DNA of 63,058 bases, counting the filler, from Hausera hauseri (lineage: Eukaryota), in assembly GCA_046269625.1 (NCBI GenBank). It is 10 parts of 10 records of this genome, joined end to end, with 100 filler letters (N's around TTAATTAATTAA, not from the genome) between each part and the next. Parts side by side here need not be neighbours in the genome. Positions count along the whole stretch, not along the records: positions 1 to 13,702 come from JBJURY010766539.1; 9 more parts are not named here. One strand, written 5' to 3'. Position numbers and translations under genes: made by a program. Every line of letters starts with the position of its first letter. Within the stretch, counting starts at the first letter, position 1. Positions 1 through 35,629 of the stretch are shown here, piece by piece. The notes under the pieces are model-generated. The model saw only the letters and a program-made list of their open reading frames with translations. It did no database searches and had not been told where the DNA came from.

Positions 1-2
1 AA

Positions 3-368
3 GATACTATAGAAAAACTCCAGCAAAAGATTAGATCTAAACTAAAAGAAAGTAAGACTAATACGTTAGAAGACGGGGATAAGATAGCTGAATTAAAACA
101 GCTATACCTCGAATTAAAAGAACAGCAGACTTGTGAAAAAAGACACAAAATGCTGAGTGAAAATGTTATCATAGCTCCAGTTGGTAGACCCAAAAAGTCC
201 CCCGAGTATGAATCAGAAACTGAAAAGAAGATTAAGAGGAAAGATAAACCTCTCATACAAGAATTAAAAACTCCTGAACTAAGTTTGTCTTCGGAAAGTG
301 AAGTTGAGAAAAGCGAATCTAATGGGAAAGGTGAACCAAAAGAAAAGATAAAGAGAACAAGAAAGTAG
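3..368 (+). CDS. 3' end of upstream ORF (possibly gag C-terminus), K/E-rich
   Basis: Frame open from base 3 to TAG at 366-368; overlaps the start of the -1 frame ORF, which is open from 335; no gag motif visible. Confidence 0.45.
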   Translation, partial: DTIEKLQQKIRSKLKESKTNTLEDGDKIAELKQLYLELKEQQTCEKRHKMLSENVIIAPVGRPKKSPEYESETEKKIKRKDKPLIQELKTPELSLSSESEVEKSESNGKGEPKEKIKRTRK

Positions 369-496
369 AACGGTCACCTGAGTTTGATAGTCCACCCATA
401 GATTTAGATAAGGATGGTATAGAAATAGTTCGGAAGATATCCGGCTATGCCAACCAAGAATTAATTGATGGAACACAGTTTAAGCAGGACCTTTCA

Positions 497-3400
497 ATGT
501 TATTATCACCGACAATTAACCACCATCAATTTGCTAATTTATTGGACTTATTGTTAGTGTATGCTGCAGGCACAAGTCCATACCAGAATATTATACGGTA
601 TATAATTTATCGTTATGCAGATAAAGTAAGCAGAATTGGAGAGAACCCAGAAGTAATAGTTACTCTTCAGCAATACAATCAGGACTTTTACGTCCTAAGA
701 ATGAAGTCGTCAGATACGATAGCCTTTTTAAAGCATAGAATTAATGAAATAAAACAATCTCAAGGAGAACTAGACTTGCGTTTCTATGGACGAACGCTGA
801 TGGATCATGAAACCTTATATGAGGTAGGTATCTGGGAAAACAGATATAATCCAGTATGTATTACTTATAGACAGCCCGAGCAAGAGGTAATTGATGAGAT
901 CATAATGGATGTTAGGCGAAAAGAAACGGAAGAAGCTGAACATCATCAAGAAGTAAGAACTGAAATGAATATTCCTATATCTGAGCAAATACAAACAGAT
1001 AAAAAACCCCGTGGAAGACCGAAAGGTACGACAAAACTTTACCAATTAAAAGGCAGAAAAGCCAGAGATGACGAAGTTGTTCGGAGATTGCTAACAACAG
1101 AAGATGAGTATGATGTAGATAATGTATCATTAACAACATTACTACAAACCTTGTTAGCAAGAATACACAATGCATTTGTTGAGTTCAATACCAATTTACA
1201 AATACCTGATGCACTAATGCAAGCTATAAGAAACGAAATTGCAAAGATTAGTGAGCAATTTGCAGATATCCCTACGGATGAGAGAATAAATGAAATTCAA
1301 GAAAGGGATATTTTATCAAGAATGATGGGAACCGGTATATCCCGAAATAAAATTATAACGGCCATATCGTATCTCTTGTATAAAATAATAGTCATGAACG
1401 GTGTGAATCCGAATCAAGAAGAAATAGAAAGAAACATAGAAATTGCTACCAAAGCGTTAAAGGCCAATGTTGAAGGATGGGTAAAATGTAGAGGTGGATG
1501 GATCACTAGTTTGATTCATACGACAATACATGAATCGGTGCCAGTTACACAACGACAAACGGAATATCTTCCACCTCAACGACCAGAGAGGCAACAAAAT
1601 GTACAACCAGATTTTGATCTATCGTGGTTAACTAAAGTTATACCCATACTTCTCTTATTCAGTCTTATGCCAAAAACACTCTCTATCATTGCTTATGATT
1701 GCAGTCAAGCTAAGGAAGGTCCTATATATTCCTTGTTGGATTTAGAAAAGTGTCCATTTGCTAATCCGGCATCATTAACTACAATAACAGATAAGGATTA
1801 TTATGTTTATCAGGAATCGGAGTTTGTAAAAACCAAAGTGAAAGAATGTTTTGTTCGAAGAAACCAATTCCATTTTATCTGCGGATATTGGTATAGGAAT
1901 TCGGCCATAGTAGAACCGACTACTCCGTTTGAGCCACTCCCTATAAGCAAACGAATGTGTATAGAGGCCTTCGTAACAAAACAAATTAACATCGGAAGTA
2001 TTCGATTAAAAGCTCAAAAAGGAAAAATTATCAACAAGAGGATATTTGTGGCTGGAACAATTGACAAAACAGGCTACTGTAAAGGACAATCCTACATTAT
2101 AAATGGTGAAATGTTGGATAATATAGTAGCTATTGAGGATTATCAAGTTGAGTTGAGAGAGTATGATGCTCTCTTTGAGTTATCATCAGGAAAAATGATG
2201 ACATTTCCTGAATGCGATTACTACAACAAGGAATGTGACACTGGAGAATCAATTATGTCATATGAAGTGGATAAGGATCAATGCCAATTAGCCTTTTTAA
2301 GAAGTGGGAAGTTTAATAAAACGAAAGGAAAGATATACAAAGAAGAGATATCGAAGAGTAGATTAGATCGAATATCAGATACGATTGAAACACCAACCAT
2401 AATATATTCGGCCGATCCAAGCGAAGGTATGAGATTTAAAATAGAAGGTAAAACTAAAAGATGTAACCAAATAGTATATCGAACAAATTATAAAGGTATA
2501 TTTCTATCAATAGATAAAATAAAGGAAGCAAAGAGAAATATAGACAAATCGGAAGTAAAGCCACATTTGTATTTCGATAACAAGATTGACTTTATCTACC
2601 ACTTCCAACAAGAAAATATCTATGCAATGTATAGAGAAATAATACTAAATGATTGTAAACTGAACAAAGAGATTATTAGGAATCGAATATATTTGTCAGC
2701 AATAACGGACGGTATAATGAAAGATCCAGCAGAATCACCCGATACAGAAGGAAAGTTTGCCAGAACAATGGGTGAAACCCTCGTAACTTTCGAGTGTGCA
2801 AAAGTAGCAGTTAAATTAAGACCTATTAAAGATTGTACTATGGAACTACCCGTCTGGTATAAAGAGAAACCACGTTTTCTACAACCAATTACTAGGATAT
2901 TGTTGGATCCTATGGAAAAGCCACTTGTACACCAGAACTGTACATATACTATGTCACCAACGTTCAGGTTGACCAATGATTATTGGATAAGCATGCCCGG
3001 TAAAGAACGGGTGACCACACCCAGAAGAATTAGTTTAATAAACCTAAAGACTGAACAAACCTATAAGCCATTGACAGACTTAGTAAAAATGGGTGTATAC
3101 TCCGAACAGGATATGGAAAATCATAGAAGGATGATGATGGTCCCACAACAGAGACAAAAAGTCTTAACAGAAATGGCCATGAAGGTATTATCTGAACATA
3201 CCGGCAAAGCTAACTGGGAAAATTTGATGGGACCCGATTACGCAAAGAAAATTGCTAGAGATATATTTGCAACTGCATGGGGATGGTACATGTGGTTCGG
3301 CCAGTTTAACTCTGGATGGTTGGGATTTTATTATATCTTTGCCTTCATAAAAGCAATATTAACCATGATAACAAAAGGATATGGTATAAAGCAAGCTGCT

Positions 3401-6322
3401 GGATGCACATGGAAAATTATTTATGCGGTGATCCCATTCGTAGCTAGTTGTTTCTTAATAAAAAAAGATGCTGAGTGGAAACAGAAAAATAAAAATGATA
3501 ATAATGATGAACCATCAACAAAATTAATTGAGAAGATGGGAGAAATAAAACCTCAATCGCTTGAGAATACAAAAAAGACGTGGAGTTTGATTACTGCCCG
3601 AAGTAAGAAAAGAAGAACCTTACTTGCGGATATCCCTCAAATGAAACGATGGAACGAGTATCCAATGGAACAACAATGTTTTATGTCACCTAATGAATAT
3701 ATAGATGTACATTGTTCCAGTGATGTGGATAATTGCGAGTCAAAACATATGAAACTTACATTTTATCCAACGGCCCCAAAAGAGGCTCTGATAACAAGTA
3801 TTGACGGAGGAAAAGTAATTCCGAGAATAGTAATTTGGATAGACGGATATCCTCTTACTGCAATAATAGACACGGGAGCATCAGCTTCGATGATCTCTCG
3901 CAAACAGCTGCCAGAACAATTAAAGAAAAAGTTACAGAAACCTATAGAAGATCTCACAAATGTCGGTGCTTTTGGAACAAAGGTACAAGTGCGAGACATA
4001 ATAAAATGTGACACTAAAGTCCTGAATCAAAAATTCGAACAAGAATTCAGAATAGCGGATGAACTAGTAGCCGAAGCTATACTTGGGTGCGATGCATTGG
4101 CAAAAATGAAAGATATGTGTATCCATTTAGAAACTCAACAAATCCAACCTCTTCGAAAGATGAAAAATGGAAAGAAAGATACAGTCTCCATTAAAGAAGA
4201 TGTACTGATTCCGGCTAAAACAGAAGTTGTACTCAAAGCAATAGTCGAAGGAAGATATGAAGGTGAAGTTTATATAGAACCAAATATAAGTTTTATGACT
4301 AAGAACGAACTATGGATAGCTCATATGATTGACAATATCCGAGAACAACAAGTGATCGTCAGGATAGCCAATGTTTCAAATAAGTCTAAATTTCTCAGGA
4401 AAGGCACAAGAATTGCCTACGTTTACACTATAAAAGATGTAGGCAATAAGGCAACAGAAGATATTATTTCTATTGTACAGGAGTTATCCAATTTTATGGA
4501 AAGACAAAAACAAACTTCAAGAACCAAGTGCGATATACGATTCGAAACAGAACCGATGAATAAATTAAAAGGACATCTTAATAAAAAGAAGATAATAACA
4601 CAGTTAACTAAAACTCTAATTAATTGGAATGATTTTGATCTATTTGGCAAGGACAGTACATTAACAGATATAGAAAAAGAAGGTATAGTTAAAATATTAC
4701 AACAATATAAGGATACCTTCGCAATAGATGAATATGATATGGGTATCATACCAGTCATCAAGCATGAGATCAAATTAAAAGCCGGGATGGAAACCCCTAT
4801 TAAAAAGAGACCATACAGACTCAATTATGACAAAAGAGAAAAAGCCAAAGAAATAATAGCTGAGATGAGAAAATATGACATAATCAGACCCAGCAATTCC
4901 CCCTGGGCGGCTCCTATCGTTATGGTACAGAAGAAGGATGGATCCATTAGAATGTGTGTAGATTATCGTGCTCTTAATGAAGTAACGGTAGACAATACCT
5001 ATCCGTTACCCAGAATTGATGAGCTATTGGATAAATTAAAAGATAAAATGTTGTTTACTACATTAGATCTACAGAAAGGATTTTGGCAGATAGAGGTACA
5101 AGAAGAAGATAAACAAAAAACGGCCTTCGTCACAGCAGATGGACATTATGAGTTTAACCGAATGGCATTTGGAATGAAGAACTCTCCGGCAACGTTTCAA
5201 ACAGCCATGGATATAATAACAATGGATGCTCCACACATAATGTGTTATGTAGATGATGTGATAATTGCTTCAAGTGATTATAAACAACATAAGGAACATC
5301 TCAAAGATATGTTGGAGAGGTGTGCCCTTCTCGGTATAAAAATAAGTTTAAAGAAATGCTGTTTTGCTAGGACAAAAGTAGATTTTTTAGGCCATACGGT
5401 CAGTAGAGAAGGCATCAGTCCACAGATTGGAAAGATCAATAAAATACAGGATTTTCCAGTCCCAAAAACAGTGAAAGGAGTTCGTAAATTTCTCGGTCTT
5501 ACAGGATATTATAGAAAATTTGTTAAAAATTACCAACAAATAGCTTCTCCTTTACATTCGTTACTACAAGAAAACTCTAAACTAGTGTGGACCCAGGAAT
5601 GCCAAAAAGCGTACCAACAACTGAAAGATAGTTTGTTAGCCCCACCAATATTGGCTTATCCAAATATGTCTAAACCATATTTCTTAGCCACAGACGCAAG
5701 TAAAGTTGGAATAGGAGTTGTTTTATCTCAGAAGGATGATCAAGGACAAGAGCATCCTATATCATTTGGAGGACGAAAATTGAGAAAACACGAGAAAAAT
5801 TATTCTACAATTGAAAGAGAATTACTCGCGATCGTATATGCTTTAGAACAGTACGGACAGTATTTGTCGGAAACCAAACCAATTGTTATCTATACCGACC
5901 ATAAGCTGCTACAATGGTTAAAGAATCATAAAAATCCAAATAGTCGTTTGATGAAATGGGCAATGCTACTTCAACCTTACGACTTGAAGTTTGAATATAA
6001 GACTGGTAAGGCCAATGCAAATGCAGACTACATGTCCAGAATACCTGAGGACATAGATCAAGAGGAAGAAATAACGGATAAACCAGGCGTTATAGCAGCC
6101 ATCTGGAGTATTACGGAACATGAAAAATCTTTGCAACAAAAACAACAAGATGATGAACAAATAAGACAAATTATGGAATATATCCAAAAGAAAATTACAC
6201 CAAAAGATATTGATCTTCATACTCACTTAATAAAGTTTGCTGAAAACTATCAAATAAAAGATGGCATATTACATTACAATTATAAAGGAAAATTGGTTGT
6301 TGTTGTCCCCAAGAGGATATAA
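497..6322 (+). CDS. pol: Polyprotein part 1: Ubl, AT-hook, fusion glycoprotein, aspartic protease, RT, RNase H, start of IN (frame open from 335)
   Basis: PR IIDTGASASMI (~3869); RT SPWAAPIVMVQKKDG..MCVDYRALN and YVDD (5246-5257); RNase H ATDASKVGIG, YSTIERELLAI, TDH, NADYMSR. Confidence 0.93.
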   Translation: MLLSPTINHHQFANLLDLLLVYAAGTSPYQNIIRYIIYRYADKVSRIGENPEVIVTLQQYNQDFYVLRMKSSDTIAFLKHRINEIKQSQGELDLRFYGRTLMDHETLYEVGIWENRYNPVCITYRQPEQEVIDEIIMDVRRKETEEAEHHQEVRTEMNIPISEQIQTDKKPRGRPKGTTKLYQLKGRKARDDEVVRRLLTTEDEYDVDNVSLTTLLQTLLARIHNAFVEFNTNLQIPDALMQAIRNEIAKISEQFADIPTDERINEIQERDILSRMMGTGISRNKIITAISYLLYKIIVMNGVNPNQEEIERNIEIATKALKANVEGWVKCRGGWITSLIHTTIHESVPVTQRQTEYLPPQRPERQQNVQPDFDLSWLTKVIPILLLFSLMPKTLSIIAYDCSQAKEGPIYSLLDLEKCPFANPASLTTITDKDYYVYQESEFVKTKVKECFVRRNQFHFICGYWYRNSAIVEPTTPFEPLPISKRMCIEAFVTKQINIGSIRLKAQKGKIINKRIFVAGTIDKTGYCKGQSYIINGEMLDNIVAIEDYQVELREYDALFELSSGKMMTFPECDYYNKECDTGESIMSYEVDKDQCQLAFLRSGKFNKTKGKIYKEEISKSRLDRISDTIETPTIIYSADPSEGMRFKIEGKTKRCNQIVYRTNYKGIFLSIDKIKEAKRNIDKSEVKPHLYFDNKIDFIYHFQQENIYAMYREIILNDCKLNKEIIRNRIYLSAITDGIMKDPAESPDTEGKFARTMGETLVTFECAKVAVKLRPIKDCTMELPVWYKEKPRFLQPITRILLDPMEKPLVHQNCTYTMSPTFRLTNDYWISMPGKERVTTPRRISLINLKTEQTYKPLTDLVKMGVYSEQDMENHRRMMMVPQQRQKVLTEMAMKVLSEHTGKANWENLMGPDYAKKIARDIFATAWGWYMWFGQFNSGWLGFYYIFAFIKAILTMITKGYGIKQAAGCTWKIIYAVIPFVASCFLIKKDAEWKQKNKNDNNDEPSTKLIEKMGEIKPQSLENTKKTWSLITARSKKRRTLLADIPQMKRWNEYPMEQQCFMSPNEYIDVHCSSDVDNCESKHMKLTFYPTAPKEALITSIDGGKVIPRIVIWIDGYPLTAIIDTGASASMISRKQLPEQLKKKLQKPIEDLTNVGAFGTKVQVRDIIKCDTKVLNQKFEQEFRIADELVAEAILGCDALAKMKDMCIHLETQQIQPLRKMKNGKKDTVSIKEDVLIPAKTEVVLKAIVEGRYEGEVYIEPNISFMTKNELWIAHMIDNIREQQVIVRIANVSNKSKFLRKGTRIAYVYTIKDVGNKATEDIISIVQELSNFMERQKQTSRTKCDIRFETEPMNKLKGHLNKKKIITQLTKTLINWNDFDLFGKDSTLTDIEKEGIVKILQQYKDTFAIDEYDMGIIPVIKHEIKLKAGMETPIKKRPYRLNYDKREKAKEIIAEMRKYDIIRPSNSPWAAPIVMVQKKDGSIRMCVDYRALNEVTVDNTYPLPRIDELLDKLKDKMLFTTLDLQKGFWQIEVQEEDKQKTAFVTADGHYEFNRMAFGMKNSPATFQTAMDIITMDAPHIMCYVDDVIIASSDYKQHKEHLKDMLERCALLGIKISLKKCCFARTKVDFLGHTVSREGISPQIGKINKIQDFPVPKTVKGVRKFLGLTGYYRKFVKNYQQIASPLHSLLQENSKLVWTQECQKAYQQLKDSLLAPPILAYPNMSKPYFLATDASKVGIGVVLSQKDDQGQEHPISFGGRKLRKHEKNYSTIERELLAIVYALEQYGQYLSETKPIVIYTDHKLLQWLKNHKNPNSRLMKWAMLLQPYDLKFEYKTGKANANADYMSRIPEDIDQEEEITDKPGVIAAIWSITEHEKSLQQKQQDDEQIRQIMEYIQKKITPKDIDLHTHLIKFAENYQIKDGILHYNYKGKLVVVVPKRI
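650..868 (+). other. Ubiquitin-like domain within the polyprotein
   Basis: SSDTIAFLKHRI and LRFYGRTLMDHETLYEVGI align with ubiquitin PSDTIENVKAKI and LIFAGKQLEDGRTLSDYNI; no C-terminal GG. Confidence 0.75.
1001..1027 (+). other. AT-hook motif
   Basis: KKPRGRPKG. Confidence 0.7.
1625..3460 (+). other. Env-like class III fusion glycoprotein (chuvirus/Jingchuvirales G-like)
   Basis: Internal signal peptide WLTKVIPILLLFSLMPKTLS, then IIAYDC..YSLLDLEKC; Cys-rich ectodomain (KVKECFV..FICG, GETLVTFECAKV, CTMELPV..FLQPITRIL); C-terminal WGWYMWFGQFNSGWLGFYYIFAFI TM. Confidence 0.8.
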
Positions 6323-6327
6323 AACTA

Positions 6328-9300
6328 TTGTTAATACAATACCATGATGGTATGTTGGGAGGACATCAATCAAAGAAGCGAACATTGGGTAGATTGAGAA
6401 GAAAATATTACTGGCATAAAATGCCTAAAGATGTAGAAGAATGGTGCAAAAGTTGCCCCAAAAATACTGGCTCAAAAATTAAGGTCCCCCTTAAACCACT
6501 GGAGTGTCCACCAGCCCCAATGGAGTTCTCAGCAATGGACATTCTAGGACCGTTACCTATGACAATAAATGGAAACAAATATATGTTAGTATTTGTTGAT
6601 CTATTTTCCAGATGGCCGGTCGTAATACCAATACCAGACCAAAAAGCCCAGACGATTGCTCAGGCCTTTGTCGAGGAAATTGTTTTTAATTATGGAGCAC
6701 CAACCAAATTATTGACGGATCAAGCACCAAACTTCACAGGAGAAGTCATGGCGCAAATATCAAAAATATTTCAGGTATTACAATTAAAAACTACCCCGTA
6801 CCATCCTCAAACAAATGGAACAGTGGAAAGATTTAACGGAATTTTAACCAATATGTTAGCTACAATGGTCAATGAACGACAAGACGATTGGGATGAGTAT
6901 ATTAAACCATGCCTGTTTGCAATTAGAAACACAATTCATCCAGCAACTAAGGAAACACCTTTTTATTTGATGTATCTGAGAGATACTCATATGCCAATTG
7001 ATTTGGATTTTAAAATTCCAATTTCCCATTTAAAAGATCTGGAATATAAAGAATTGTTAGAAGAAAAATTAGGGTATGTATGGAATCTAGCGTCTCGTCA
7101 CATGAAGATATGTCAAAAAGAATATAAAGAACGATACGATGAAAAAGCGAAACCACATGACTTTAAACCTGGTGATAAAGTCATGTTACATACACCCTTA
7201 AATAAGAAAGGAAAGACACCGAAATTAGATAGACCATACAAAGGTCCATACATAGTTCAAAAAGCAGATGAAACTAACATCTATCTAAATAAAAATAAAA
7301 GAAATAAAATCGACCCTATAAAAGTTCATGTAAACAGGTGTAAACCAGCACCTATAGAGTCGAAAATAAGGAATGAAAACCTCAGTTCGTTATTAATGGT
7401 AATATTTATGACATTAACCTTAGTGACCGGTATATCAGCTCAAACATTAGATGTAAACTATAAGGCCGTACAAATTGGAAAATATCCCTGTATAAAAATT
7501 ACAGCCAATCGGAATCTGACAACAGATGAATATATACACATATTCATATCGAAATATCCGGTACTAGAGAAAACAACACCAGAAAATTGCGACTTATATT
7601 ATAATCACTCGGTACACATTTGTTGTGGACTTTCATTTGGAGAAACATATAGAATTCAGTATGCAACTGGGAAAAGTGATCAGAGTTACAGAACATATTT
7701 CTCCTTCCCTGGTACTACCCATCATTTTAATCGACCATATTTTCTTATTTCATTTTACCCTAAAATTATGAAAAATGGACCTTGTGTAACAGCGGAACCA
7801 GATGTTACAATTACGAGATATGTCACATTCAAATACATAATATTTGATGGTATTAACAGTATATACTGTAAACCAAATTATGAAAATCCATATATATGTT
7901 GTCCCATTGCCTTTGACAAGGAATATATGATATATTACTGGACTACATATAATGGCCAAACCTGGTCAAAAACATCAGATGGCCCGGAGATAATGGTAAG
8001 ATCTCCCCCTAAGAAAATTACAATCTCAACAAAGAAAACAATTACTTTAACAACAACACCCACTTTAGTAACCAGCCTAACAACTAAAGCCAAAAAATTC
8101 ATTAAAGAATTAGATATAATCATCCAACCTACAATTCATTCATTGGTTATTACGGCATCCGATTTAAAAACTACCAATATAAAATTTGAATGCTATCTTA
8201 ATTATAGAATAATTAGTGAAGGTGTACTAACTCCAGATGAACCAACATCATCTTGCTTATCTTTGAAAGCCGACACCAGTTACCAAGTTATTATAACAGA
8301 ACTAGATGAGGATGGACAAGTTTTACAGGTTCTTAAAAGGAAGGAGAAAACGTTGAAATTACCTATGATTAATACAGAAAGAGTTACGAAAATAGTTACT
8401 ACACAAAAATTTGAACAAACTTCAAATAAACATTCTTGGATAATTATTATATTATGTATTCTTTTAATATTGGTAGTCATATTAATACCTTTAACAATTT
8501 ACTGTTTAAAAATAAGGCGGCGACAGAACAGGGTAAGAAAAATGCTAAATCATTTAAAAATGTTAAAAGAAAACTCCCAAAACTCCTTATTAGATATAAG
8601 CGCGTCTGTTTTAGAAAATCCACGGCAAGTTGAAAAACTTACCGACCAAAAACGGCTAATCCGCCCGTTAAAAGACACGACCGTTTGTCTATGTACTCGA
8701 ATATACGATGAGGCCGCCAAAACCTTAGTGACCTATATAAGAATTAAACAATCAAAATACGATAATGTCCTATTCTTTAAAACCGCTTGGCTAATGCTAA
8801 TGTTTTTATTTTTAGTCCAAGAAGGTGCAGAACGAACTGAAAGGCCCAATGCTTTTTACAATCACATTTTGTCTAATTTATGGGCTACTTCTCATCAGAA
8901 CTATTGCTACTATGGAAAAGCTGTACTCATCCCCAATAACCTCAAGGGATATTCTATCCAGCAAAGAAGTGGTCTCATAGTAAAATTGCAACAGAGATCA
9001 ATTAATCTCTCCGATCTAATAAATACATCCGGATATACCTATGCTGTATATATCTCAGTCGCCAGAGGAATTATTCAACTCAAAAGTAAGTCACATGCAA
9101 CGGGAATCACGGATGTGATGGAGATCTTAAACCGAGTAACCGTTCGTTTGGACCCTCGACTATACCTTAACGCTACAATTACTATACGAACATGCGAAGG
9201 ATCATTCCCAATAATTTATATAGAAGTGATTAAAAAGGATCAAATACTTCGCTTGGATTACCAAATTCCAAAATTTATGACACCCAGACCTAAGGAAACT

Positions 9301-10221
9301 GATGTAGAAGCAGGGTTATCATTTATAAGAAGGCCAATAACTTCAAAAGAAGTAATAATAATAATGGCTTTGAATTCGATATATTTATTCACTTCAATCA
9401 GAAATACTGAGACAACTCCTGTAGAAGTAACGTTAATGAAGTTAAACGGTGAAATTATCCTGGATGAAATTCTATGTCCTAGGGAAAAAATTGATAACTA
9501 TAATACCCATATAACAGGGTTAAAAGAGGACCACATTATCGGTAAAAAAGATTTCTATCATGAAGAACCCCTTTTGAGAAAAGCAATTGTGGGAAAGGTA
9601 ATTGTAGGCATCGATGTTTATAACATCTTTGCAACCACATTCAGATACGACTATAACAATCTCTTGGGGATCAGGGAACTTTTATATCACAAGGATGTCA
9701 ATCCTCAGCGGATATATACAGCTAAACAAATTCTCACCCAATACAATGATAATAAATACCCTCAAAGGACTCGAGACAAAGCTTTGACCATACTGAAGAT
9801 TTATAACTCTATTTTCGAGTATCAAAATGAGAAATTCGAAGAACTAACAAGTTCAAGAGAATCAATGGATACACAACCAATCGCTGACTACCCAATCGCG
9901 CTAATTCCTACAGTGTCAACTCTACCTATCGATGATCAAACTGAAACATCCTCTTCCGTTCAGATAATGAAAGACTGTTCTATTGATCTGAAGCCGTTGG
10001 AATTAACCAGCTCTACTGAATCTATTCTCGTAGACCTTACGAAGACGACAAAAAGAAAAAAAATTCCGAAGAGAGAAACAATTACTCTGAAGAGACAGAT
10101 TAAAAAGAAAGGGCGAGTACTTCATATCAAATCCGTCGACTACCAAGACTCAAATGGAATTATAGAAGCCTACCCTTTGATGCTGCGGACAGCATCATCT
10201 AAGGAGGGAGGTGTCAAATAA
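6328..10221 (+). CDS. Polyprotein part 2 (after a 1-nt frameshift near 6312): integrase, signal peptide, 3 FN3-like repeats, TM, unknown domain, DEDDh-like domain
   Basis: H..H..C zinc-binding region; DDE residues AMDILGP, LTDQAPNF, GTVERFNG; GPY module KGPYIV; hydrophobic segments at 7381-7440 and 8437-8508. Confidence 0.88.
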   Translation: MLIQYHDGMLGGHQSKKRTLGRLRRKYYWHKMPKDVEEWCKSCPKNTGSKIKVPLKPLECPPAPMEFSAMDILGPLPMTINGNKYMLVFVDLFSRWPVVIPIPDQKAQTIAQAFVEEIVFNYGAPTKLLTDQAPNFTGEVMAQISKIFQVLQLKTTPYHPQTNGTVERFNGILTNMLATMVNERQDDWDEYIKPCLFAIRNTIHPATKETPFYLMYLRDTHMPIDLDFKIPISHLKDLEYKELLEEKLGYVWNLASRHMKICQKEYKERYDEKAKPHDFKPGDKVMLHTPLNKKGKTPKLDRPYKGPYIVQKADETNIYLNKNKRNKIDPIKVHVNRCKPAPIESKIRNENLSSLLMVIFMTLTLVTGISAQTLDVNYKAVQIGKYPCIKITANRNLTTDEYIHIFISKYPVLEKTTPENCDLYYNHSVHICCGLSFGETYRIQYATGKSDQSYRTYFSFPGTTHHFNRPYFLISFYPKIMKNGPCVTAEPDVTITRYVTFKYIIFDGINSIYCKPNYENPYICCPIAFDKEYMIYYWTTYNGQTWSKTSDGPEIMVRSPPKKITISTKKTITLTTTPTLVTSLTTKAKKFIKELDIIIQPTIHSLVITASDLKTTNIKFECYLNYRIISEGVLTPDEPTSSCLSLKADTSYQVIITELDEDGQVLQVLKRKEKTLKLPMINTERVTKIVTTQKFEQTSNKHSWIIIILCILLILVVILIPLTIYCLKIRRRQNRVRKMLNHLKMLKENSQNSLLDISASVLENPRQVEKLTDQKRLIRPLKDTTVCLCTRIYDEAAKTLVTYIRIKQSKYDNVLFFKTAWLMLMFLFLVQEGAERTERPNAFYNHILSNLWATSHQNYCYYGKAVLIPNNLKGYSIQQRSGLIVKLQQRSINLSDLINTSGYTYAVYISVARGIIQLKSKSHATGITDVMEILNRVTVRLDPRLYLNATITIRTCEGSFPIIYIEVIKKDQILRLDYQIPKFMTPRPKETDVEAGLSFIRRPITSKEVIIIMALNSIYLFTSIRNTETTPVEVTLMKLNGEIILDEILCPREKIDNYNTHITGLKEDHIIGKKDFYHEEPLLRKAIVGKVIVGIDVYNIFATTFRYDYNNLLGIRELLYHKDVNPQRIYTAKQILTQYNDNKYPQRTRDKALTILKIYNSIFEYQNEKFEELTSSRESMDTQPIADYPIALIPTVSTLPIDDQTETSSSVQIMKDCSIDLKPLELTSSTESILVDLTKTTKRKKIPKRETITLKRQIKKKGRVLHIKSVDYQDSNGIIEAYPLMLRTASSKEGGVK
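7381..8508 (+). other. Second type I membrane protein with three FN3-like repeats and a Thr-rich linker
   Basis: Repeated motif ICCGLSFGETYRIQY / ICCPIAFDKEYMIYY / SCLSLKADTSYQVII; TM WIIIILCILLILVVILIPLTIYCL followed by basic KIRRRQNRVRK. Confidence 0.65.
9350..9820 (+). other. REXO4/ISG20-like DEDDh exonuclease fold with catalytic residues substituted
   Basis: EVTLMKLNGEIILDEILCPREKIDNYNTHITGLKEDHI..KAIVGKVIVG resembles the REXO4-type RVSIVN..G..YDKYVKP.EPVTDYRT.VSGI....L..LKGRILVGH; ALNSI stands in place of ALDCE. Confidence 0.7.
10201..10211 (+). promoter_or_regulatory. Polypurine tract
   Basis: AAGGAGGGAGG immediately before TGTCAA. Confidence 0.75.
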
Positions 10222-10988
10222 ATGAAATCATTGAAGTGCTGTTTGATCAATAATATAACCATGAGTATTGAACATATGTGAAATTATTGAACAGATAATT
10301 AAAATTGATTGACTTATGGTTTTGCAGATTAAAAAGGATTTTCTTTTCATTTTTCTTTGACGATATCAACCATGTGTAATAATTAAAATAGATTTGTAAT
10401 TATCTCCTCATTTTTTTGACATATGTCACGGCTGTAGTTTTATTATAAATACCGTTACTATTCATACCATTGACACACAATTTTTGACTGAATACTGACT
10501 TCTGATACATTATGAATCTGACGTATGATAATTGTAAGTTATGTTTTTTTGTTCCTTTTTGTTCATATTTTCTTCTCGTATTTTGGTTGATTATTTAATT
10601 TAATATTTTATTAAATATTCCGATAGTTTCAGTTGTTTTGATTTATTGGTTTAGCGTAAAGTAATTAACTAAAAGGTACCGTATTGTAATAGAGATAAAT
10701 AAAATAAATTCAAGACAACCCCTTTTTGGTATACCTTCCTTTAATACAGGTCGGTTGTTAAAAATCACAATAAATAAGGGAGAGCGACGTCGGTGTACCT
10801 CCCGACCGAACTCACACATTAAGAAAAAGTAATTAAATAAAATTCCTGAATTTCGGCAGACCCACAGGCTGCCGAATACTCTGACTAATTAAATAGAACT
10901 TGGGACACGGAGAGGACCCAAGTTGAGAACTGATAGTATAAGTTTAAGGTCGTGAGACCAAATAAATTTTACACCTTCAAACTTATCA
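10212..10988 (+). repeat. 3' LTR (~777 bp)
   Basis: Starts with TG after the PPT; TATAAA ~10445; AATAAA motifs; ends ..CTTATCA, where homologous coding sequence of another element resumes; collinear with 11391-12090. Confidence 0.7.
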
Positions 10989-10989
10989 T

Positions 10990-11411
10990 AGAGATAAAGC
11001 CTTAGTTATTCAAAAGATTTATCGGTCAATCCCTGACTACCAAAAATAAGTGAAAAATCGAAAAACACGCCAATTAACGTACAAGTATTCCCACATCCAC
11101 CAGCACCTGTCCAACTAGCGCCAATTCAGACGCTTTCTCAAAGTGCATCGCCAAATAATTGGAAACATTTACTGCGTGATATCTTATTGTCTAATATCTC
11201 TACTCGTGATATTAATAACCTCATCAAAAACTACATACAACAAATACCAGATAAGAAAACAGTTACCATCAAACGAAAAATTATGGAGGATAATGAATGG
11301 ATAGAAGTTGATTCAGTAAGATACAAACGTGCCGATGGTTCCTTTATAATCTTCCCTCTTAAGCCGAGCGTAGCTTCTTCTAGGAAGGGATATATCGACG
11401 ATATAAACTGA
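10990..11411 (+). pseudogene. 3' polyprotein tail of a related element (end of exonuclease-like domain plus C-terminal motif)
   Basis: RDKALVIQKIYRSIPDYQ vs RDKALTILKIYNSIFEYQ; TIKRKI..EVDSVRYKRADGSFIIFPL..VASSRKG vs TLKRQI..HIKSVDYQDSNGIIEAYPL..TASSKEGG; one frameshift. Confidence 0.8.
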
Positions 11412-12090
11412 CTAAACTGTCCGCCAAATTCAAATAAACCAGACGAAATTGATCCGGTTAAGTATAAACTATGTAAACAATTTACATTGATGTGAAATTT
11501 AATTTTTCGATCTAATCTATGTGATCATTGATTTAATTTATTTCATGTGAAATTTAATTTCATTATTTTGAAATTTATTTTTTTTTTTATTGTAACTGAA
11601 CTCTTGATTTATATAAATACCACTCACATCTTAACAAGACTGACACAATCTTTAACAATTTATAATTTTTTGCACTGTAACTTTCATAGATGTATCCTTC
11701 CTATGATAGATGTAAACCTCATTTCTATTGTTATTTCGTTTGATTTCAATTGTTACAGTAGATTTCATTTTAATTCATATTAAAATTTTATATTATTGTA
11801 CTTTTATTCTTTTTAGTTGAGAGTAAATAAGTAAGTAGTTTTACATTAACAAGACTTACGAAACAATTTAATTAATATCTAATGGGTTCCCTCTTCGGTA
11901 TACCGCCCCATAAGGACGATTGTCTAAAATGATATAAATAAGGTAGACTATCCGTAGTATGCCTCCTAGCGATCAAGTCACACCGTAGGATCAAATAATA
12001 CAGAGTAACCCCACAGGTTACTGCGAGAATAATTAAAAATTAAGTTTAAAGTCGCGAGGCCTAAACTATTTAGAACTTTTAAACTTAACA
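11391..12090 (+). repeat. Diverged 3' LTR of the related element
   Basis: PPT AGGAAGGGA at 11382-11390; blocks TATAAATACC, GGTATACC, ATAAATAAGG, CCCACAGG and AAGTTTAA shared with the first LTR; ends AAACTTAACA. Confidence 0.65.
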
Positions 12091-12842
12091 TTAATGTAAA
12101 CTTCAGCATTTTTTACCTTCAAGAGTAATAATTTGTCCAGCCCCATTGACAGACATGCATCCCCATACCATCAAACCTGTTTCTACTGCTGTTGCACTTG
12201 TATGATAGTTCATTACCTGATTTATGTCAAACGTAAACTCTGCAATGTGAATACCTCAACATAATCATTGATTCGTCAGTTCAAAGGAATGTGTGCCAAA
12301 ATTTTCATTCTTTTCCTCAAATGTAGGGTCTTTTAAGTGCAAAGCGACAATTCAATCCTGAGCTATGTAATCTTCTGCATATTGTGCTGCTTAACCGTGC
12401 ATTTTTGTCCTCACTGATAATCTGTGTATGTATTTTTGGTGCACAAGTGAACGGGTTTTGGTTTGAAAGTACTTTAATCTGAGTATACACTCTTTTGGTA
12501 GTCGTTTGTAGCCTCCTTGGTCAACTTCATCGATTTAAAAGACCATTTGTGGAAAATTTATTGATAAATCTATTGATCGATATGTCAGGTTTTCCAAAAA
12601 TATTTGCTATGTACCGATTTGGAAAAACGCATTCCTTTAATTTTATAATTGCTCTTTTCTCTGAGACGGTCAATTGCTAGAATTTTGCCATTTTGTGCTA
12701 AAATTTGAATTAAAATTTACTTTTACTAATAATGCCGCTTAAATTCAAATCTTACTTCAAGCCGTATAATAGAATGTAGAACTTATTTGTTAAAATGATT
12801 ACATTATAAATATTTATTAAAAGTTCAAAGTAATTCAGTTAT

Positions 12843-13113
12843 TTAACTTCAAATCTACTCTTAGCCTGTTGTACATATTGATGACGTTTTGTGATATTCG
12901 AGCAGCCTCAATAGACATTTTGACCGCAAGATTGCACCATGCTCGATCAGAGATCCCAAGCTTAAGAAAGGTGTTGTTGTTCTCTGGTCACCAGGAACCT
13001 TTGATTAGATGTTTGTACCAACTGGTGTTTTCGTTTATTACTTGATCGATTATCTCTTCACCATCGAATGGACTTTTAATATCTATAATGTAGCAGAAGC
13101 CTTTGGCATAGAT
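12843..13113 (-). pseudogene. 3' fragment of an RLE-endonuclease (R2/NeSL-like) non-LTR retrotransposon
   Basis: Minus-strand translation CYIIDIKSPFD...GSW*PENNNTFLKLGISDRAW resembles the restriction-like endonuclease C-terminus; contains a stop. Confidence 0.45.
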
Positions 13114-13804
13114 TATTATTATTATTATATTAATCTCTGGTGTAGGTAGCACTTGCGCCTTTGCCTACAATGGGAAGTCATAGTGACAACATTTTTGTTA
13201 AAACATTTTCCAAGTCTAAAAGGATGAAGGTTTATCGGAAGAAGATTTAGTTTAGCCACGTAAAAAATTGCCATGTGTAGCCAGACAAGGAAGTATCTAC
13301 ATTTGTCATGCATCTGGAGGAAAGGGAATGACGACCGACTGATGATGCTCACTTATTTTGACGTTTGTCCGCTAGCCAGTCCTAATAGTAATATTCGTTA
13401 TACATTCCGGAATTTTAGAGGATACAGAATGGAATTGGTCAGAACCAATGAAACCTGTTTGATTTGTCGTAATAATAGTGAGTTTGACTTTGCTACTGCC
13501 ATCGAGTTGGAAGAATATGGTTATATTAAGACGTCGAATTTGCCGGTTGGACAGTCGAATCTTCATCCAATGGCACACACACCTAAGAGCGGACATATAT
13601 GATAGATTTTTTGTTCTCAACCTGCAGCAGTAGCGACCTTTCGATTCATATCATCTGGGCTGTTAAGGAATTAAAAGATCTGGGTGACTGATCATAGGAG
13701 TANNNNNNNNNNNNNNNNNNNNNNNNNNNNNNNNNNNNNNNNNNNNTTAATTAATTAANNNNNNNNNNNNNNNNNNNNNNNNNNNNNNNNNNNNNNNNNN
13801 NNTA

Positions 13805-15537: not shown

Positions 15538-16712
15538 TTGAAAGAGTGTATAGAAGACAAGATGGCGGAAGCACCATCTGTACCAATGGTTGCTATTCCC
15601 CAACAGCAACTAGACACCATGTTAGAAGAGTATGGCGCCATGAGAGCGGCATACGAAGAAACAAGGAAAATGTTGGAAAATTTACAAGCAGGAAGCCAGA
15701 CCCCAATTAAGGAAGGGAAGCTTCATGTAAAGTCAGGTTTGGGTAAAGAAGACCCAGTGCGAAAGGCCTTAGATAAGATAGAAACAATGGTGACTAAGGT
15801 TGACATGAATAGTAGGCACCAGAATATTAGAACCTTTGTACAACCTTTCAGTGGGAAAGAAGCGAAGACATTTAAGACTTGGATATCACAAATCGAGAAA
15901 TACGCATACTTGGTGAAGGCCACAGAAGAAGAGAAAAAGGAACTGGCGTACATGACCTCAGATGCGTTGGCTAATGACTTCATAAGAAGAAGATTTAGTT
16001 CCCACCCGGAAGAAACGGGACGAATTTAAGAAAACACTGGCCAATAGATACGCTGAAGTCAGTGACATGCATTATGCAGCGGCAGCACTTAGAAAGAAAA
16101 AACAGGAGCGAGAAGAAGCGTTACAACTCTACGGTGACCGAATGCTAAATATGGCAGAAGAGGCATACTCTGGACAGAATATTATGACAGAAGAGATAGG
16201 AAAGCTATTAATACCGATATTTACAGACGGTCTAAGAAACACAAGAATCAAGATAAAGTTAATGAAAGACGAGCCAAAAACAATACAAGCAGCCATTCAA
16301 ACTGCAGTGGAAGAAGAGAATTTTAGTAAAAGGGTGAACATGAGGTTAGGCAGAGAAAAATATGACGACAGGGGAGAAGAACAAATGGAGATAGACCAAT
16401 ACAGACCAAGATGGCACAGAAAGTTGCATGAACACGAGAAGCATAGCGGAAGAAGATAGGAAAACAGTACATGAAGTAGAGAAGAGAATACAGTGCTACA
16501 AGTGCGGCAGAGCGAATCACATAGCAAGGGAATGCAGAAGTAAACCAGTAGAACCGAATTCTACTAGACCGAATGCAGGAAATCAGAGAAAGTGCTATAA
16601 ATGTGGCAAAGAAGGACATTTTGCCAGGGTGTGTAGGTCGAATGAAGTACATGAGCAAAGAGACAGCAGAAATCAGACGCAACAGGGAAACGGAAACCCC
16701 GCTTTGAAGTGA
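15538..16712 (+). pseudogene. gag: Gypsy element B gag (frameshifted) with two CCHC zinc knuckles
   Basis: PFSG..FKTWISQIEKY; EQMEID; CYKCGRANHIAREC; CYKCGKEGHFARVC. Confidence 0.88.
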
Positions 16713-19700
16713 GCTTCCGGTGAAGGGGGGAGCTAAAGGAAGCTAAACGAGAAGTGAAATTTGAAAGAAAAAATGAGCTAAAGGAAGCAATTAATAGTAT
16801 AAATCGAGAAGAACATGAACCAGGTTGCCAAGCAGGCGTTAGACTACGAAAACGAAGTAAAGAGAAAACTGGGCAAGGTAGGAGAATAGTGAGAACCCAA
16901 CAGTACAATACAAGATATGATAACTACAAGGAAAATCGAGAAGCGAGACTTGAAAGAAAAAGAGAACACAATGAAGCAAACCACAGTAGAAACGGAAAAC
17001 AAGAACACACACAAAGCAGAAGAACGGTAAAGATGCGACAACCTAATGTAAGACAACATAGTCGGAAAAGGTACGAGAATGAACACACCACACCGCTAAG
17101 AAGGGGAACTAGATATGAAACACGATTTATAAGGAAAAGAGACCCAAGTGAAATAAATCCTAGAACAAGAATTGGACAACGAAACAGCCGAAGAAGATGT
17201 ATGAACCAAGATAGATACGGAACCAACTTTGAAACGAGAAGAGAAAAACCCAAAAGGATAAGTCGAAACTTGAACACCAGAAGTGATAGACACTGGCTGA
17301 GGACCAACCAACCAAATCAGCAAAAGATAAGAAGAACAATTAGTCAAGATATGCAACTACGCCGAAATCAGAACAGCCAGCGACAAAACCAAGAATCAGA
17401 ACCTATGGAAATAGACGAAACCGAGAAAAAAAGATGTGTAGTGAAAGAACCAAAACACAAACCCCAAAAGCAAGTCCATCCCATTCCCGAACACAAGAAC
17501 GAAGTTAACACCCATCACCCACATCCCAGAGAACAACGACCCTATCCCAACCAACGAAGAGAAACAGTTACAAGAAGGAAACCACCGCGAATATCAGCCA
17601 GAAACGGAAACAACCAAGTAAGGGAGAAATCAAAGAAAATATACGAAATTAACTACACCGAAGACCCAAGCTCCTGCATCGTATACTTTGGGAAGGTTAG
17701 AGTGAGATGTCTTATAGATACCGGTGCCCATGTAAGCATCATAAGTGAAAGGATCTATAAAATGCTGAAAAAACCGAGTAGGTTAGTAAACCAAGACATC
17801 GACCTAAGATCAGTATCAGGGAGCGAATTGAAAGTATTAGGAAAAACGCAGTTAGAGTTCAAGATTGGCAAGAAAACGATGAAACATCACTTCTTGGTAA
17901 TCAAAAACATGTGCCGGAGCGCAATTATAGGTAGAGACTTTCTACAAAAGAACAACGCCCGCATTTATTTTGACCTGAAAAAGATAAGGATAGAAGATGA
18001 ATATGTAGATTTGGAAGACGACATCCACATAGCTTCAATAATACAGGTCAAGCAAAAGATTACCATGAAACCACATTCTCTGAACATAGTGATAGCGGCA
18101 ATGAAAGGAAACCAATATTGGGAAGAAGGAGAAAGCATACTGGTAACAGCATTAGAAGAAAAAGACATAATCGACGAGCCTGGATTACAATCCATATGTA
18201 GGATAGTGAAGTTAAACAGAAGAAAGGAGATACCAGTGATGGTGGCAAACCACACCGGAAAGACAATTACTTTGCAAAAAGGCTGCATTGTAGCGAAAGT
18301 GGAGAAACTGCAGACAACGAAATGTGAAACAATCGCTCGATATATGAAAAGCAACCAAAGAGAAAAGAAATTAGAAATAGAAACAGAAGAGAGATGACAA
18401 AGAAGAATACACAGAGACAAGGTGCTAAAGGAAATTAGAGATGGAGTGTGGAAACGGAAACAAAGCAAAACAGTAGCAGAAGTAACAAGAGATGATGAGA
18501 GAACCAGAAAACTACTAGAAACAATAAAAGTAGACTCAACACACAGAGAGAGAATAGAGAAGTTTGTTAGAAAACACCCCGATGTATTTGCACTATCAGA
18601 TATGGAACTCGGAAGAACGCAGACGGTCACGATGAGAATTGATACTGGTGACCATCCACCAATTAGTCTAAAACCATATCGAACACCACTTGGGAATCGA
18701 GAAATTGTGGAAAAAGCCATATTGCAGGCTGGAATTATCGAGAGGACCAGATCATCACCGATAGTTATCGTTCCAAAGAAAGATGGGAGTCATCTGTTTT
18801 GCGTCGACTATAGGGCACTGAACGCAATAACAGCCAATGTGAGTTATCCAATGCCCTTAATTGATGACATTCTGGGAGTACTAGACGGGACTACTTACTT
18901 CACCACATTAGACGCGAGGTCAGGGTTTTGGTGCATCCCGATGTCACCGGATGCGAAGATGAAGAGTGCATTCTGTACGCATACTGGATTGTATGCATGA
19001 ACGTCATGCCATTTGGGTTGAAAGGATCACCAGCGACCTATATGTCGCTAATGAACATCGTTCTATAAGGTATGCAACAGTACGCACTGGCCTACATCGA
19101 TGATATCCTTATCTTTACAAAGGGAGACATTGAAGATCACTTAGAACATGTCGAGAAGGTGTTTGACCGACTGAGAGAGCACAAAGTGAAACTCAAACTA
19201 AGTAAATGTGAATTTTTAAAAGAAGAAACGAAATATCTAGGATTTGTAATCAACAGACAAGGGGTACAACCAGATAAAGACAAAGTGACTGCGATACGAT
19301 CGATGGCAGCACTGAAATCTACAAAAGAAGTTAGAGAACATGCGGGTATTACCGTAGATTTATTCCCAACTTCTCGGTAATAGCGGAACCGCTGGTGGCG
19401 TTAACATGAAAATTCGCAAGGTTACGATGGGACGAAAACTGTCAAAAAGCTTTCGAGTATTTGAAGGAAAGTTTGACCATAGTGCCATTGCTGACCTATC
19501 CGAACGTTAACAAAGAATATGTGTTATACACAGACGCATCAGAATACGCGGTAGGAGCCGTATTAGCACAAGAAGACGGTACAGAAATCATCAAAGACAA
19601 AGAAGTACCCAGAGAGAAACCGATATACTTCTTATCACACAGGTTAACGAAGTCACAGAGGAAATGGTCAGTGACGGAGAAAGAAGCCTATGCAATTCAC

Positions 19701-20737
19701 TATGCCTTGCAGAAATTAAATTTTTATTTACATAACAGTAAATTTACCATCAAGACCGACCACATACCACTCAAGGCAATGCTAAGAGCTGACATGCAGA
19801 ACAAAAGAATACAGCCATGGATAATAAATTTACAGGGATACAATATGAATATTGAATATATTCCAGGCCGTGAAAACGCAATTGCTGACCTATTGTCATG
19901 AATACCGGACAAACACAGTGAGGAAGATAACCAGAGAGAAGAGATAGAAGAAGGTACACCGGAAATCGACGACCACACATTACAAATATCAGCAGTCGAT
20001 TCAACGGCAATGAAGGGTAACAAAACGGAAGAGTCAGAAACAGACAAAAGCGAGATAGACGAAAACAAAATAGATATGCGAGAAGAACAACAAAAAGATG
20101 AAGAATTACGTGGCATTATTGAAGACTTAAAATCAGGCATGGAAGAAAAATTGAAAAAGTGGAAAAGGTTTATGTTAGACAATGAAGAATTATATAGAAT
20201 TGGAGGAGAAGAGAAGAGAAATTTTCAGTTATGTGTACCACACCACATGAAACATATGGTGATACAACAGCATCACGATCAATTAGGACACCTCGGAAGA
20301 GATAGAACAGCAGAGCTAATAAGTAGGAAGTACTATTGGAAGAATATGTTACAAGAGATTGGAAATTATATTAAGAATTGTGAGATCTGCAAATTACGAA
20401 ACATGGAAATATTGAAACATCCGATCCAAGAACCAGACTATGCAAGGTTACCAATGGAAAAAGTAAGCCTAGATCTTTCCGGACCGCACCCATTAACAGC
20501 GTCGGGAAACAAACATATTCTACATATGGTAGACATATATAGTGGATGGCCAGAACTCTATGCCGTGCCAGATAAGACAGCTGAAAACATAATAAACATC
20601 TTGTTGGGAAAATTCATACTGCGATACGGATGCCCGAGAATAATTATAACTGACAACGGTCGCGAGTTTGTAAACAAGGCTATAAAAGACGCATTGAAAG
20701 AAATGAACATCAAACATGTGAGAACATCTGTGTATAA
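16685..20737 (+). pseudogene. pol: Gypsy element B pol (basic spacer, PR, RT, RH, IN) with multiple stops; cut by the gap
   Basis: LIDTGAHVSII; FCVDYRALN; YIDD; YTDASEYAVG; HHDQLGH..CEIC; SLDLSGP; ITDNGREF. Confidence 0.9.
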
Positions 20738-26000: not shown

Positions 26001-26265
26001 GTCGTTGCTCTATTTCGTTTTCATGTTCTGTTACATCTTGTCTTTTGTTCGTATTGTTGCTTTCTTCCGTTTCTTTTTCTGTCATCACTTCAGCTGTTCG
26101 TTCGTTCTTTCTTTCTGTTTTAGCGATTATGCACCCTATGTCTTTGCATCTCTTGTACATCTCTTCCATGTTCAAGCCTTGTATCTCTGTGTCTTTCATG
26201 TTCTCTTCGTTGGGTTGTAAATCTGTATTGGTCAACTTCCATGGGTTCATCGGTTCTTCTTTCAT
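23004..26265 (-). pseudogene. pol: Gypsy element C pol (RT-RH-IN), protease missing
   Basis: RFCVDYRALN, YIDD, YTDASNYAIG, SLDLSGP, ITDNGKEF, GVNERQH; closely similar to element B. Confidence 0.9.
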
Positions 26266-27106
26266 GTCTATCTTTTCCTAATCTCATATGTATTCGCTTT
26301 GTAAAATTTTCTTCATCTACTGTTGTTTGAATGGCATCTTGAATAGTTCGTGGTTCATCTTTCATCAGGTTTATTTTGGTTCTAGTGCTTCTTAGACCAT
26401 CTGTAAATATGGGGACCAGTAGTTTGCTAATCTCTGTTGCCATAATATCTTGATCTGCATATGCTAATTCTGCGATGTTTAGCATTCTTTCAGCATATAA
26501 TTGTGTTGACTCTTCATTTTCTTGTCTTATCTTTCTCAGTGCATCAATAGCATAATGTGAGTCTATGACTTCTGCATATCTATTAGACAGGGTTTTCTTA
26601 AATTCTTCCCATGGTTCATCAGGATGTGATGTAAATCTTCGTCGGATGAAATCATTTACTAACGCCTCTGATCTAAGATATGTCAGCTCTTTTTTCTCCT
26701 GTTTTGTCGACTTGAAAAGGTAAGCATATTTCTCGATTTGACCTAACCAAGTCTTGAATATCTTGGGGTCATTGCCATTAAATGCTTGTATAAAAGATCT
26801 CACATTTTGATGCTTATTGTTCAGATCAACTTTCGACACCATTGCTTCGATTTTATCCAGTGCTTTCGTAACAGGGTCAAGTTTACCCAAACTTGACTTG
26901 CTCGATTTTGTTTCTCTTACAGGGGTTTGCCCTCCCATTTGTAAACTTTCTACTAATCTTCTCATTTCTTCATATGCCATTTTCATTTCAGCATACTCTG
27001 TTGTCATTTGCTCCAATTGTTGTTGAGAAATTGCAACCATTTTCTCTCCTGTTACTGAACGTGGGGATGCCATCTTCATGTCTATTAGTTTAAATATCTC
27101 TTCCAA
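26120..27106 (-). pseudogene. gag: Gypsy element C gag (capsid region; nucleocapsid absent)
   Basis: Aligns with element B gag (MVAISQQQL, KALDKIE, FKTWLGQIEKY, EPMEVDQYR). Confidence 0.85.
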
Positions 27107-35625: not shown

Positions 35626-35629
35626 GGTA

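Follow-up and report, generated by a model that had tools for sequence, protein, structure and literature searches.

The giant gypsy-like elements of planarians, Burro and GYPSM1, encode ubiquitin/SUMO-like, Bcl-2-like and mononegavirus-like envelope domains together with protease (PR), reverse transcriptase (RT), RNase H (RH) and integrase (IN) in one polyprotein (PMC6431247), and errantiviruses of GAG-ENV-POL order with an HSV/gB-type envelope have been described from Nematoda, Bryozoa and Platyhelminthes (Chary and Hayashi, PMC13524379). In bdelloids, ORF3 of Juno and Vesta encodes 3'-5' exonucleases or small membrane proteins, typically from spliced messages (PMC5408684), and sORF2 of the Drosophila MDG1-group is a retrotransposon membrane protein linked to direct cell-to-cell transfer (10.1101/2025.03.14.642691). 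In HTLV-1, DLG1 is bound by the class I PDZ-binding motif of Env, which promotes fusion between cells at synapses (PMC4810129).

Envelope-bearing retrotransposons are thought to need a fusogen alone, and the clade-wide second surface protein analysed here adds to this picture. Our preferred reading, which we hold to be about as likely as not, is that this protein mimics adhesion molecules and directs spread to the places where cells touch, and is no trigger of the gB-type envelope; the evidence is set out below with the alternatives that bear on it.

Element structure

The window is a stretch of 63,058 nucleotides from Hausera hauseri (assembly GCA_046269625.1), made up of ten contigs joined by N44-TTAATTAATTAA-N44 spacers, so that contigs flanking a spacer need not adjoin in the genome. 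The module under study sits in contig 1 (positions 1-13702), which has two long frames on the + strand, ORF1 (335-6322; 1995 aa, stop to stop) and ORF2 (6286-10221). ORF1 has a ubiquitin-like domain (689-835; E 0.002) and a Bcl-2-like domain (1208-1501; E 0.024), both weak and below the Pfam cut-off, the former present too in sisters P0165 and P0171. Behind them, 1640-3535 encodes a signal peptide followed by a fusion glycoprotein of Monjiviricetes/gB type with an anchor (PF24664 at aa 436-1067, E 2e-76, and hydropathy), and then come aspartic protease, RT and RNase H (3821-5980; domain matches). ORF2 starts with the integrase (6307-7350), in which H2C2, core and GPY/F module were matched. The pol order is PR-RT-RH-IN, and the gB-type envelope, with its signal peptide and anchor, stands upstream of pol. 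The element is truncated at its 5' end by the contig start; CCHC knuckles or Retrotrans_gag are found in sisters P0165, P0167, P0168, P0171 and P0174, and the corresponding 5' part is missing here. A self-blastn of the contig, run as an LTR test with the left end missing, gave no repeat pair.

Because the order Ubl - Bcl-2 - env - PR - RT - RH - IN is that of Burro, and gag-env-pol elements with a gB-type envelope have been published, the kind of element is already known. We call this Ty3/gypsy element, of gag-env(gB)-pol layout, Burro-like; the label reflects the domain order and not an RT tree, and the contig measures 13.7 kb as against more than 30 kb with LTRs for Burro. Burro and our element share the domain order and the placing of ubiquitin-like, Bcl-2-like, envelope and protease domains in one frame, and accessory ORFs are common to Burro and this family, as are ankyrin repeats, present in sisters P0003, P0164 and P0165, but the Burro description, in its available text, mentions neither a PDZ motif nor an exonuclease ORF nor a signal-FN3-anchor module (PMC6431247). 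ORF1 and ORF2, the 5' part being absent, gave no Pfam match to ankyrin, BIR, MATH/TRAF or dUTPase-like domains. The gB-type errantiviruses share with this family a Ty3/gypsy pol, a gB-type envelope before pol and many copies; the main text of that report contains "fibronectin" and "accessory" zero times and, in the text available, describes no second membrane protein past the integrase (PMC13524379). Juno and Vesta also have additional ORFs past pol, but their exonuclease is of DEDDy type and replaces env, whereas here a DEDDh/ISG20-like one accompanies a true fusogen. Unlike their extra ORFs, the membrane protein of our element is in the pol frame (PMC5408684). The sORF2 protein is small, fusogen-like and an Env replacement, whereas ours has 300-400 aa, is of FN3 type and occurs alongside a gB-type Env (10.1101/2025.03.14.642691). 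In the text available to the literature search, no gB-bearing retrotransposon was described as having a PDZ motif or a second membrane protein of FN3 type; a C-terminal anchor may be mentioned in Repbase entries or figure supplements, which lay beyond that search.

The RT-to-IN frame is interrupted near 6300 here, where ORF1 and ORF2 overlap between the RNase H linker and the integrase (6286-6322, from frame translation), whereas RT and IN are in one frame in sisters. Contigs of other copies show loose ends near this frame break. Each of the 30 bins of 6100-8900 is covered by pieces from two public runs (5793 and 970) that are 80-100% identical to it, and therefore many diverged copies contain the module region; the summed contig depth drops along the post-integrase region, and such depth cannot rank genes. 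Further downstream, a diverged second copy of 10012-11037, which comprises the end of the accessory ORF and an AT-rich 3' region, lies at 11190-12150 on the + strand (alignment and tblastn). The two agree in 622 of 1096 columns, and their score is 363, with 169 as the highest among shuffles.

A membrane protein at the end of the integrase frame

The first-pass annotation had seen a signal-like segment directly after the GPY module of the integrase, and a hydrophobic stretch does stand there (ORF2 aa 365-385; 7378-7440, + strand), which hydropathy marks as an internal signal peptide, with a probable cleavage after TGISA as judged by eye. The same annotation took the protein for a separate gene. 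As no stop parts the module from the integrase, it is no separate ORF and forms the end part of the integrase/polyprotein frame. Behind the signal come repeat 1 (7441-7737; four Cys), repeat 2 (7738-8010), a Thr/Ser-rich mucin-like linker (8011-8103; 13 of 31 residues S/T), repeat 3 (8104-8370; two Cys) and the membrane anchor with a basic stop-transfer (8437-8541). The 24-aa transmembrane segment and its basic flank were found as described before (aa 718-741, nt 8437-8508; hydropathy 3.55), with KIRRRQNRVRK directly C-terminal, whereas the main Thr-rich stretch, which had been placed after the repeats, lies between repeats 2 and 3. The frame extends 570 aa beyond the anchor, to 10221. A furin-type R-x-K/R-R site was found neither in gB nor in the module ectodomain.

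The kinship of the three repeats held in part. Repeats 1 and 2 are homologous (alignment score 70, where 5000 shuffles average 27.5 and 0 of them reach 70; p 2e-4), and both have the P-C...C...I-C-C cysteines that had been pointed out, but repeat 3 showed no detectable likeness to repeats 1 and 2 in pairwise alignment (p 0.35 and 0.75) and is linked to them solely because a profile from sister elements joins all three. The motif L-x-x-x-(x)-T/E-Y-x-I/V, said to end each repeat, is strict in one of the three and loose in the other two, and it stands 20-30 aa ahead of each repeat's end.

Predicted fold of the repeats

A single-sequence AlphaFold model had a mean pLDDT of 36, and in this low-confidence model repeat 1 matched fibronectin FN3 module 6 over 97 columns (TM 0.71). 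With an alignment of 14 rows (the query and 13 sister ectodomains), the pLDDT was 80-92 in the core of repeat 3, 53-71 in repeat 1 and below 50 in repeat 2; as this model leaned on the sister rows, the fold of repeat 3 partly mirrors the sisters. The best Foldseek matches were fibronectin, IL-12 receptor, IFNAR1, Tie2, DCC and other FN3 arrays (best E 6e-7; 90 matches below 1e-3, with identities of 6-14%). Their whole-chain rmsd is high, since the model does not predict how the domains are oriented. Against viral structures, the top matches were generic FN3 proteins, with no known attachment protein there. The AlphaFold and Foldseek check suggested with the first-pass annotation, which named the lack of an Ig/FN3 fold as the outcome that would count against it, returned an FN3-type, seven-stranded beta sandwich, predicted with confidence for repeat 3 and moderately for repeat 1; repeat 2 is unsettled by the model and is predicted to share the fold by its homology to repeat 1.

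In searches by sequence, the profile of the 14-row alignment matched mostly FN3 proteins in the PDB, all weakly (best E 0.026), and fn3 matched 3 of the 14 alignment members (best E 5e-4). The best Pfam match on the module was PF25300 (E 0.007-0.017; 16.6 bits against a cut-off of 26); no repeat reached a Pfam cut-off, PF00041 included, and the module is no member of a curated Pfam family. The nearest ESM Atlas clusters were FN3 at 0.85-0.87, which is below the tool's own mark and has the value of a lead only. The ectodomain alone had no match below E 0.3 in a PDB sequence search and no phmmer match at E 0.001 among 1.84 billion representatives; a word-based search with the 387-aa module gave 0 matches among 4083 candidates, and phmmer with 7381-10218 gave 39 matches, every one in the exonuclease-family part. 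A profile from whole sister ectodomains did not detect our module (E 0.82), a first unit profile placed it 3 of 3001, and an earlier unit-profile round ranked its repeats 1, 2 and 158 of 3001. In the sister-only unit profile, where each stretch was compared with shuffles of itself, repeats 3, 1 and 2 ranked 1, 3 and 24 of 5001, and two control stretches ranked 3682 and 2827 of 5001.

The cytokine-receptor FN3 arrays among the Foldseek matches would suit a protein that manipulates the host and has no direct role in spread, such as a decoy or dominant-negative form of a host receptor (of cytokine-receptor or phosphatase-receptor type), a protein that disrupts junctions or one that blocks superinfection. 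We hold this to be quite improbable, as there is no recognisable donor receptor family: the structural identities are as low as given above, and the ectodomain found no sequence match at E 0.001. The clade also keeps a layout (signal, head, stalk, anchor and PDZ tag) and not a single ligand-binding fold. The short tail without a recognisable domain speaks for manipulation of the host, as does the gathering of host-control domains in the clade (Bcl-2-like, ubiquitin-like, ankyrin, RING and exonuclease; PMC6431247), and viral PDZ motifs can displace junction proteins (PMC4810129); rapid divergence and the swapping of folds would be compatible with an arms race.

Occurrence in sister elements

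The integrase query returned 11 proteins at 50-56% identity and then 15 longer ones at 43-56%, and of 11 close loci from a metagenome scan, 4 duplicate proteins found before; a search of viral contigs returned no relative. A quick integrase tree puts our element in a 34-row clade (SH-aLRT 99) and there in a 10-row subclade (SH-aLRT 99) of three-unit, Cys-bearing forms, of which 9 rows, our element counted in, have FN3-like units. An anchored ectodomain ends the polyprotein in 29 of 33 clade sequences (hydropathy, partly by eye). It is lacking in P0006, which is truncated, P0013, P0170 and P0176, the last with a signal and an Ig domain (PF13927, E 4e-8) but the anchor absent from the frame. The sister-only unit profile found 47 FN3-like units in 21 of 32 elements (L011 left out), and the domain, whose absence from sister elements had been named as evidence against it, is thus conserved as a slot across the clade. 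Six three-unit sisters resemble our copy, with mostly four cysteines in units 1 and 2 and about two in unit 3, and in P0003 the Thr-rich stretch too stands between units 2 and 3. Other folds in the slot are helical Cys-rich (three cases), Ig (one) and further beta-rich heads. The helical cases, P0010, P0168 and P0169, form one subclade and have a small Cys-rich ectodomain of no Pfam family in the same slot.

In addition to the slot behind the integrase, P0012 (aa 47-232) and L007 (ORF 2-10279, aa 1582-1772) have a further signal-FN3-like-anchor module between envelope and protease, which indicates that the module moves inside the polyprotein too. We also observed extra aspartic-protease domains behind the integrase in 12 of 26 clade proteins (P0003, P0005, P0013, P0162-P0164, P0166-P0168, P0170, P0172 and P0173).

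Among 15 long proteins, gB was found in 14, and the complete second protein in 12 of those 14 and in L007. The expected co-occurrence of the second membrane protein with the glycoprotein was thus borne out in 13 of the 15 relatives that have gB on record. The earlier view that the second protein is not a fusogen also stands, the fusogen being the PF24664 protein upstream of the protease.

Co-occurrence in these 13 relatives, together with the shared frame, which implies equal amounts and the same membrane, and the mucin-like stalk below a fast-changing head, would fit a particle attachment protein beside gB that binds a receptor on the target cell and sets tropism. Viral attachment proteins may be loosely coupled to their fusogen, as RSV G is, or tightly coupled, as are paramyxovirus HN and herpes gD. 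We consider this explanation unlikely, because the head switches between FN3-like, Ig and helical Cys-rich folds and the stalk is unconserved, whereas gB stays 30-38% identical to our gB; such swapping beside a steady gB argues against a coupled trigger. P0170 keeps gB without the module, a PDZ motif acts in the producer cell and would be of no use in a free particle, and other gB-type errantiviruses have been published, in the text available, with a single envelope protein (PMC13524379).

Rate of change and constraint

The ectodomain changes faster than gB wherever close relatives were compared. The identities of ectodomain and gB are 58 vs 94% (P0163/P0166) and 48 vs 94% (P0172/P0173), and in three more close pairs 41 vs 65%, 24 vs 68% and 21 vs 50%. 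Variable positions are more frequent in the ectodomain than in gB in 5 of 5 clusters built at 90%, for example 15/285 vs 3/539. For L001/L002, dN/dS was 0.32 in the ectodomain, 0.18 in anchor and tail and 0.03 in RT and IN, ratios that are rough because dS is near saturation (1.7-2.4). The ectodomain ratio of L009/L010 was 0.58 with a poor alignment, and the ectodomain of L006/L007 was saturated. Among the 38 differences listed for the synonymous tally (2 at or upstream of the frame break dropped; 365 further), 11 of 22 were synonymous in the ectodomain and 9 of 14 in IN, against a random expectation of 33%, these numbers being few. On these sequence comparisons, the ectodomain is held by selection yet quick to change.

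The two-component entry system of the first-pass annotation, taken strictly, is not supported by these data: the ectodomain outpaces gB, and unrelated folds take its place in some relatives, which fits a host-facing accessory better than a fusogen-coupled partner. That the module is the least conserved part of all, and that our own copy is damaged, could also be taken to mean that it is a neutral passenger, a decaying scrap of a host membrane protein behind the integrase. This is very improbable and largely refuted: past the integrase, frames of 300-1300 aa have stayed open, complete with signal, anchor and terminal motif, in the majority of 33 relatives whose integrases differ at up to half of their residues; dN/dS is below 1, and no insertion or deletion in 6100-8900 is common to 30% of the contigs compared.

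C-terminal PDZ-binding motif

The new observation of this work, in an element of known kind, is that this clade-wide second membrane protein has a class I PDZ-binding C-terminus (S/T-x-V/L/I) in 19 of 29 anchored relatives. V, L or I is the last residue in 24 of the 29, and 10 are without the class I form. Among the controls, such a C-terminus occurs in 4 of 112 pol proteins from outside this set and in 1 of 39 proteins of the exonuclease family, and the tail composition leads one to expect it in 3.8%; the Fisher p of 8e-13 ignores kinship, the 29 relatives being kin and no independent events. The class I motif was kept in all members compared of 4 out of 5 clusters.

In our own copy, the candidate counterpart of the sisters' terminal motif is a T-L-V at 8722-8730 (+ strand), 72-74 aa past the anchor and non-terminal. 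Its position falls inside the range of sister tail lengths, and it is suggestive at most because the tail holds 6 triplets of this kind. As the frame continues beyond it, our copy has no free PDZ motif.

HTLV-1 Env, like the sisters, has an S/T-x-hydrophobic C-terminus on a retroviral surface protein, and there it is tied to contact spread; the carrier of the motif is the fusogen in HTLV-1, whereas here it is the second protein, the fusogen being internal in the polyprotein (PMC4810129). PDZ motifs also serve plain surface retention, and this function is equally compatible with the alternatives discussed above.

Proposed role

In sisters, one frame carries envelope, pol and module. We propose that the polyprotein enters the ER membrane at the gB signal and comes back at the gB anchor, that PR-RT-IN would then stay cytoplasmic, and that the second signal would re-enter the membrane and place the ectodomain in the ER lumen. 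Signal peptidase would free the second protein, one-to-one with gB and in the same membrane, and the element's protease, often present in an extra copy between integrase and signal peptide, would free the integrase. A retroelement polyprotein of 3000-4000 aa that threads the membrane in this way is, we assume, alphavirus-like. A subgenomic route starting at an internal Met may also produce the second protein.

At the surface, the PDZ motif of the tail would dock on junction or polarity scaffolds, the fast-changing ectodomain would grip a surface ligand of the neighbour cell, and gB, as a self-standing fusogen, would carry out fusion, so that budding or fusion would be placed at contacts. A complex prediction of gB and ectodomain without alignments scored 0.00, which counts neither way. 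We tentatively suggest, as a possibility somewhat short of even, that one polyprotein supplies two surface proteins: a class III fusogen, which is conserved, and an adhesion mimic with an exchangeable head (FN3, Ig or helical) on a PDZ-tagged anchor, which chooses the contact and thereby the cell type. This division is known in herpes- and paramyxoviruses and is not known to have been described for a retrotransposon.

A conserved docking tail with an exchangeable head would offer a handle on how target cells, whether stem or germ cells, are chosen in animals other than insects. Pieces of retroelements can also be mistaken for FN3-TM "receptor genes" when genes are predicted in such genomes.

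Downstream exonuclease-family ORF

In frame with the membrane protein, 8821-10221 (+ strand) encodes an accessory protein with a beta domain and an ISG20/REXO4-like DEDDh exonuclease fold; ORF2 residues 846-1190 belong to a family of proteins mostly of 420-660 aa. Our copy keeps, in the alignment, 1 of the 5 residues of the D-E-D-H-D catalytic set, all five of which are present in 23 of 39 homologues, and its exonuclease is predicted to be dead. In the sister loci that are long enough, a stop closes the polyprotein and the exonuclease-family ORF is separate (10 of 10). The frame break near 6300 and the run-on into this ORF look like peculiarities of the present, damaged copy.

A branch point, T-tract and AG at 8791-8815 (+ strand) form a candidate splice acceptor, which suggests a spliced message for the downstream ORF; a similar site is found in 3 of 10 sister loci, and 8.4 kb of coding sequence has 4 weaker ones. 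Another hydrophobic stretch, at aa 826-846, was considered as a signal peptide and rejected, being probably this splice acceptor translated in frame. Among the sister loci, L001 (6861-9920) and L002 (7268-10371) have a tandem pair of exonuclease-family ORFs, and L003 has a RING-finger ORF (2684-4135) in the interval between pol and the exonuclease ORF.

Other parts of the window

On other contigs, a second gB-type envelope is present as broken remains at 37902-39296 (- strand; 27% identity to the envelope of contig 1), and decayed gypsy elements, about 70-72% alike, lie on separate contigs at 15730-19921 (+) and 24458-26899 (-). One open frame at 34797-35765 (- strand) combines an alanyl-tRNA-synthetase piece (PF01411, E 7e-31) with an N-terminal piece of importin-beta (PF03810, E 2e-12) and is an intron-free host-gene chimera. 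A satellite with a 68-base period occupies 52676-58949. The segments 59608-61994 and 42181-44374 are two copies, 73-85% alike, and the former contains a piece of a type B DNA polymerase (PF03175, E 1e-11), which is presumably Polinton-like.
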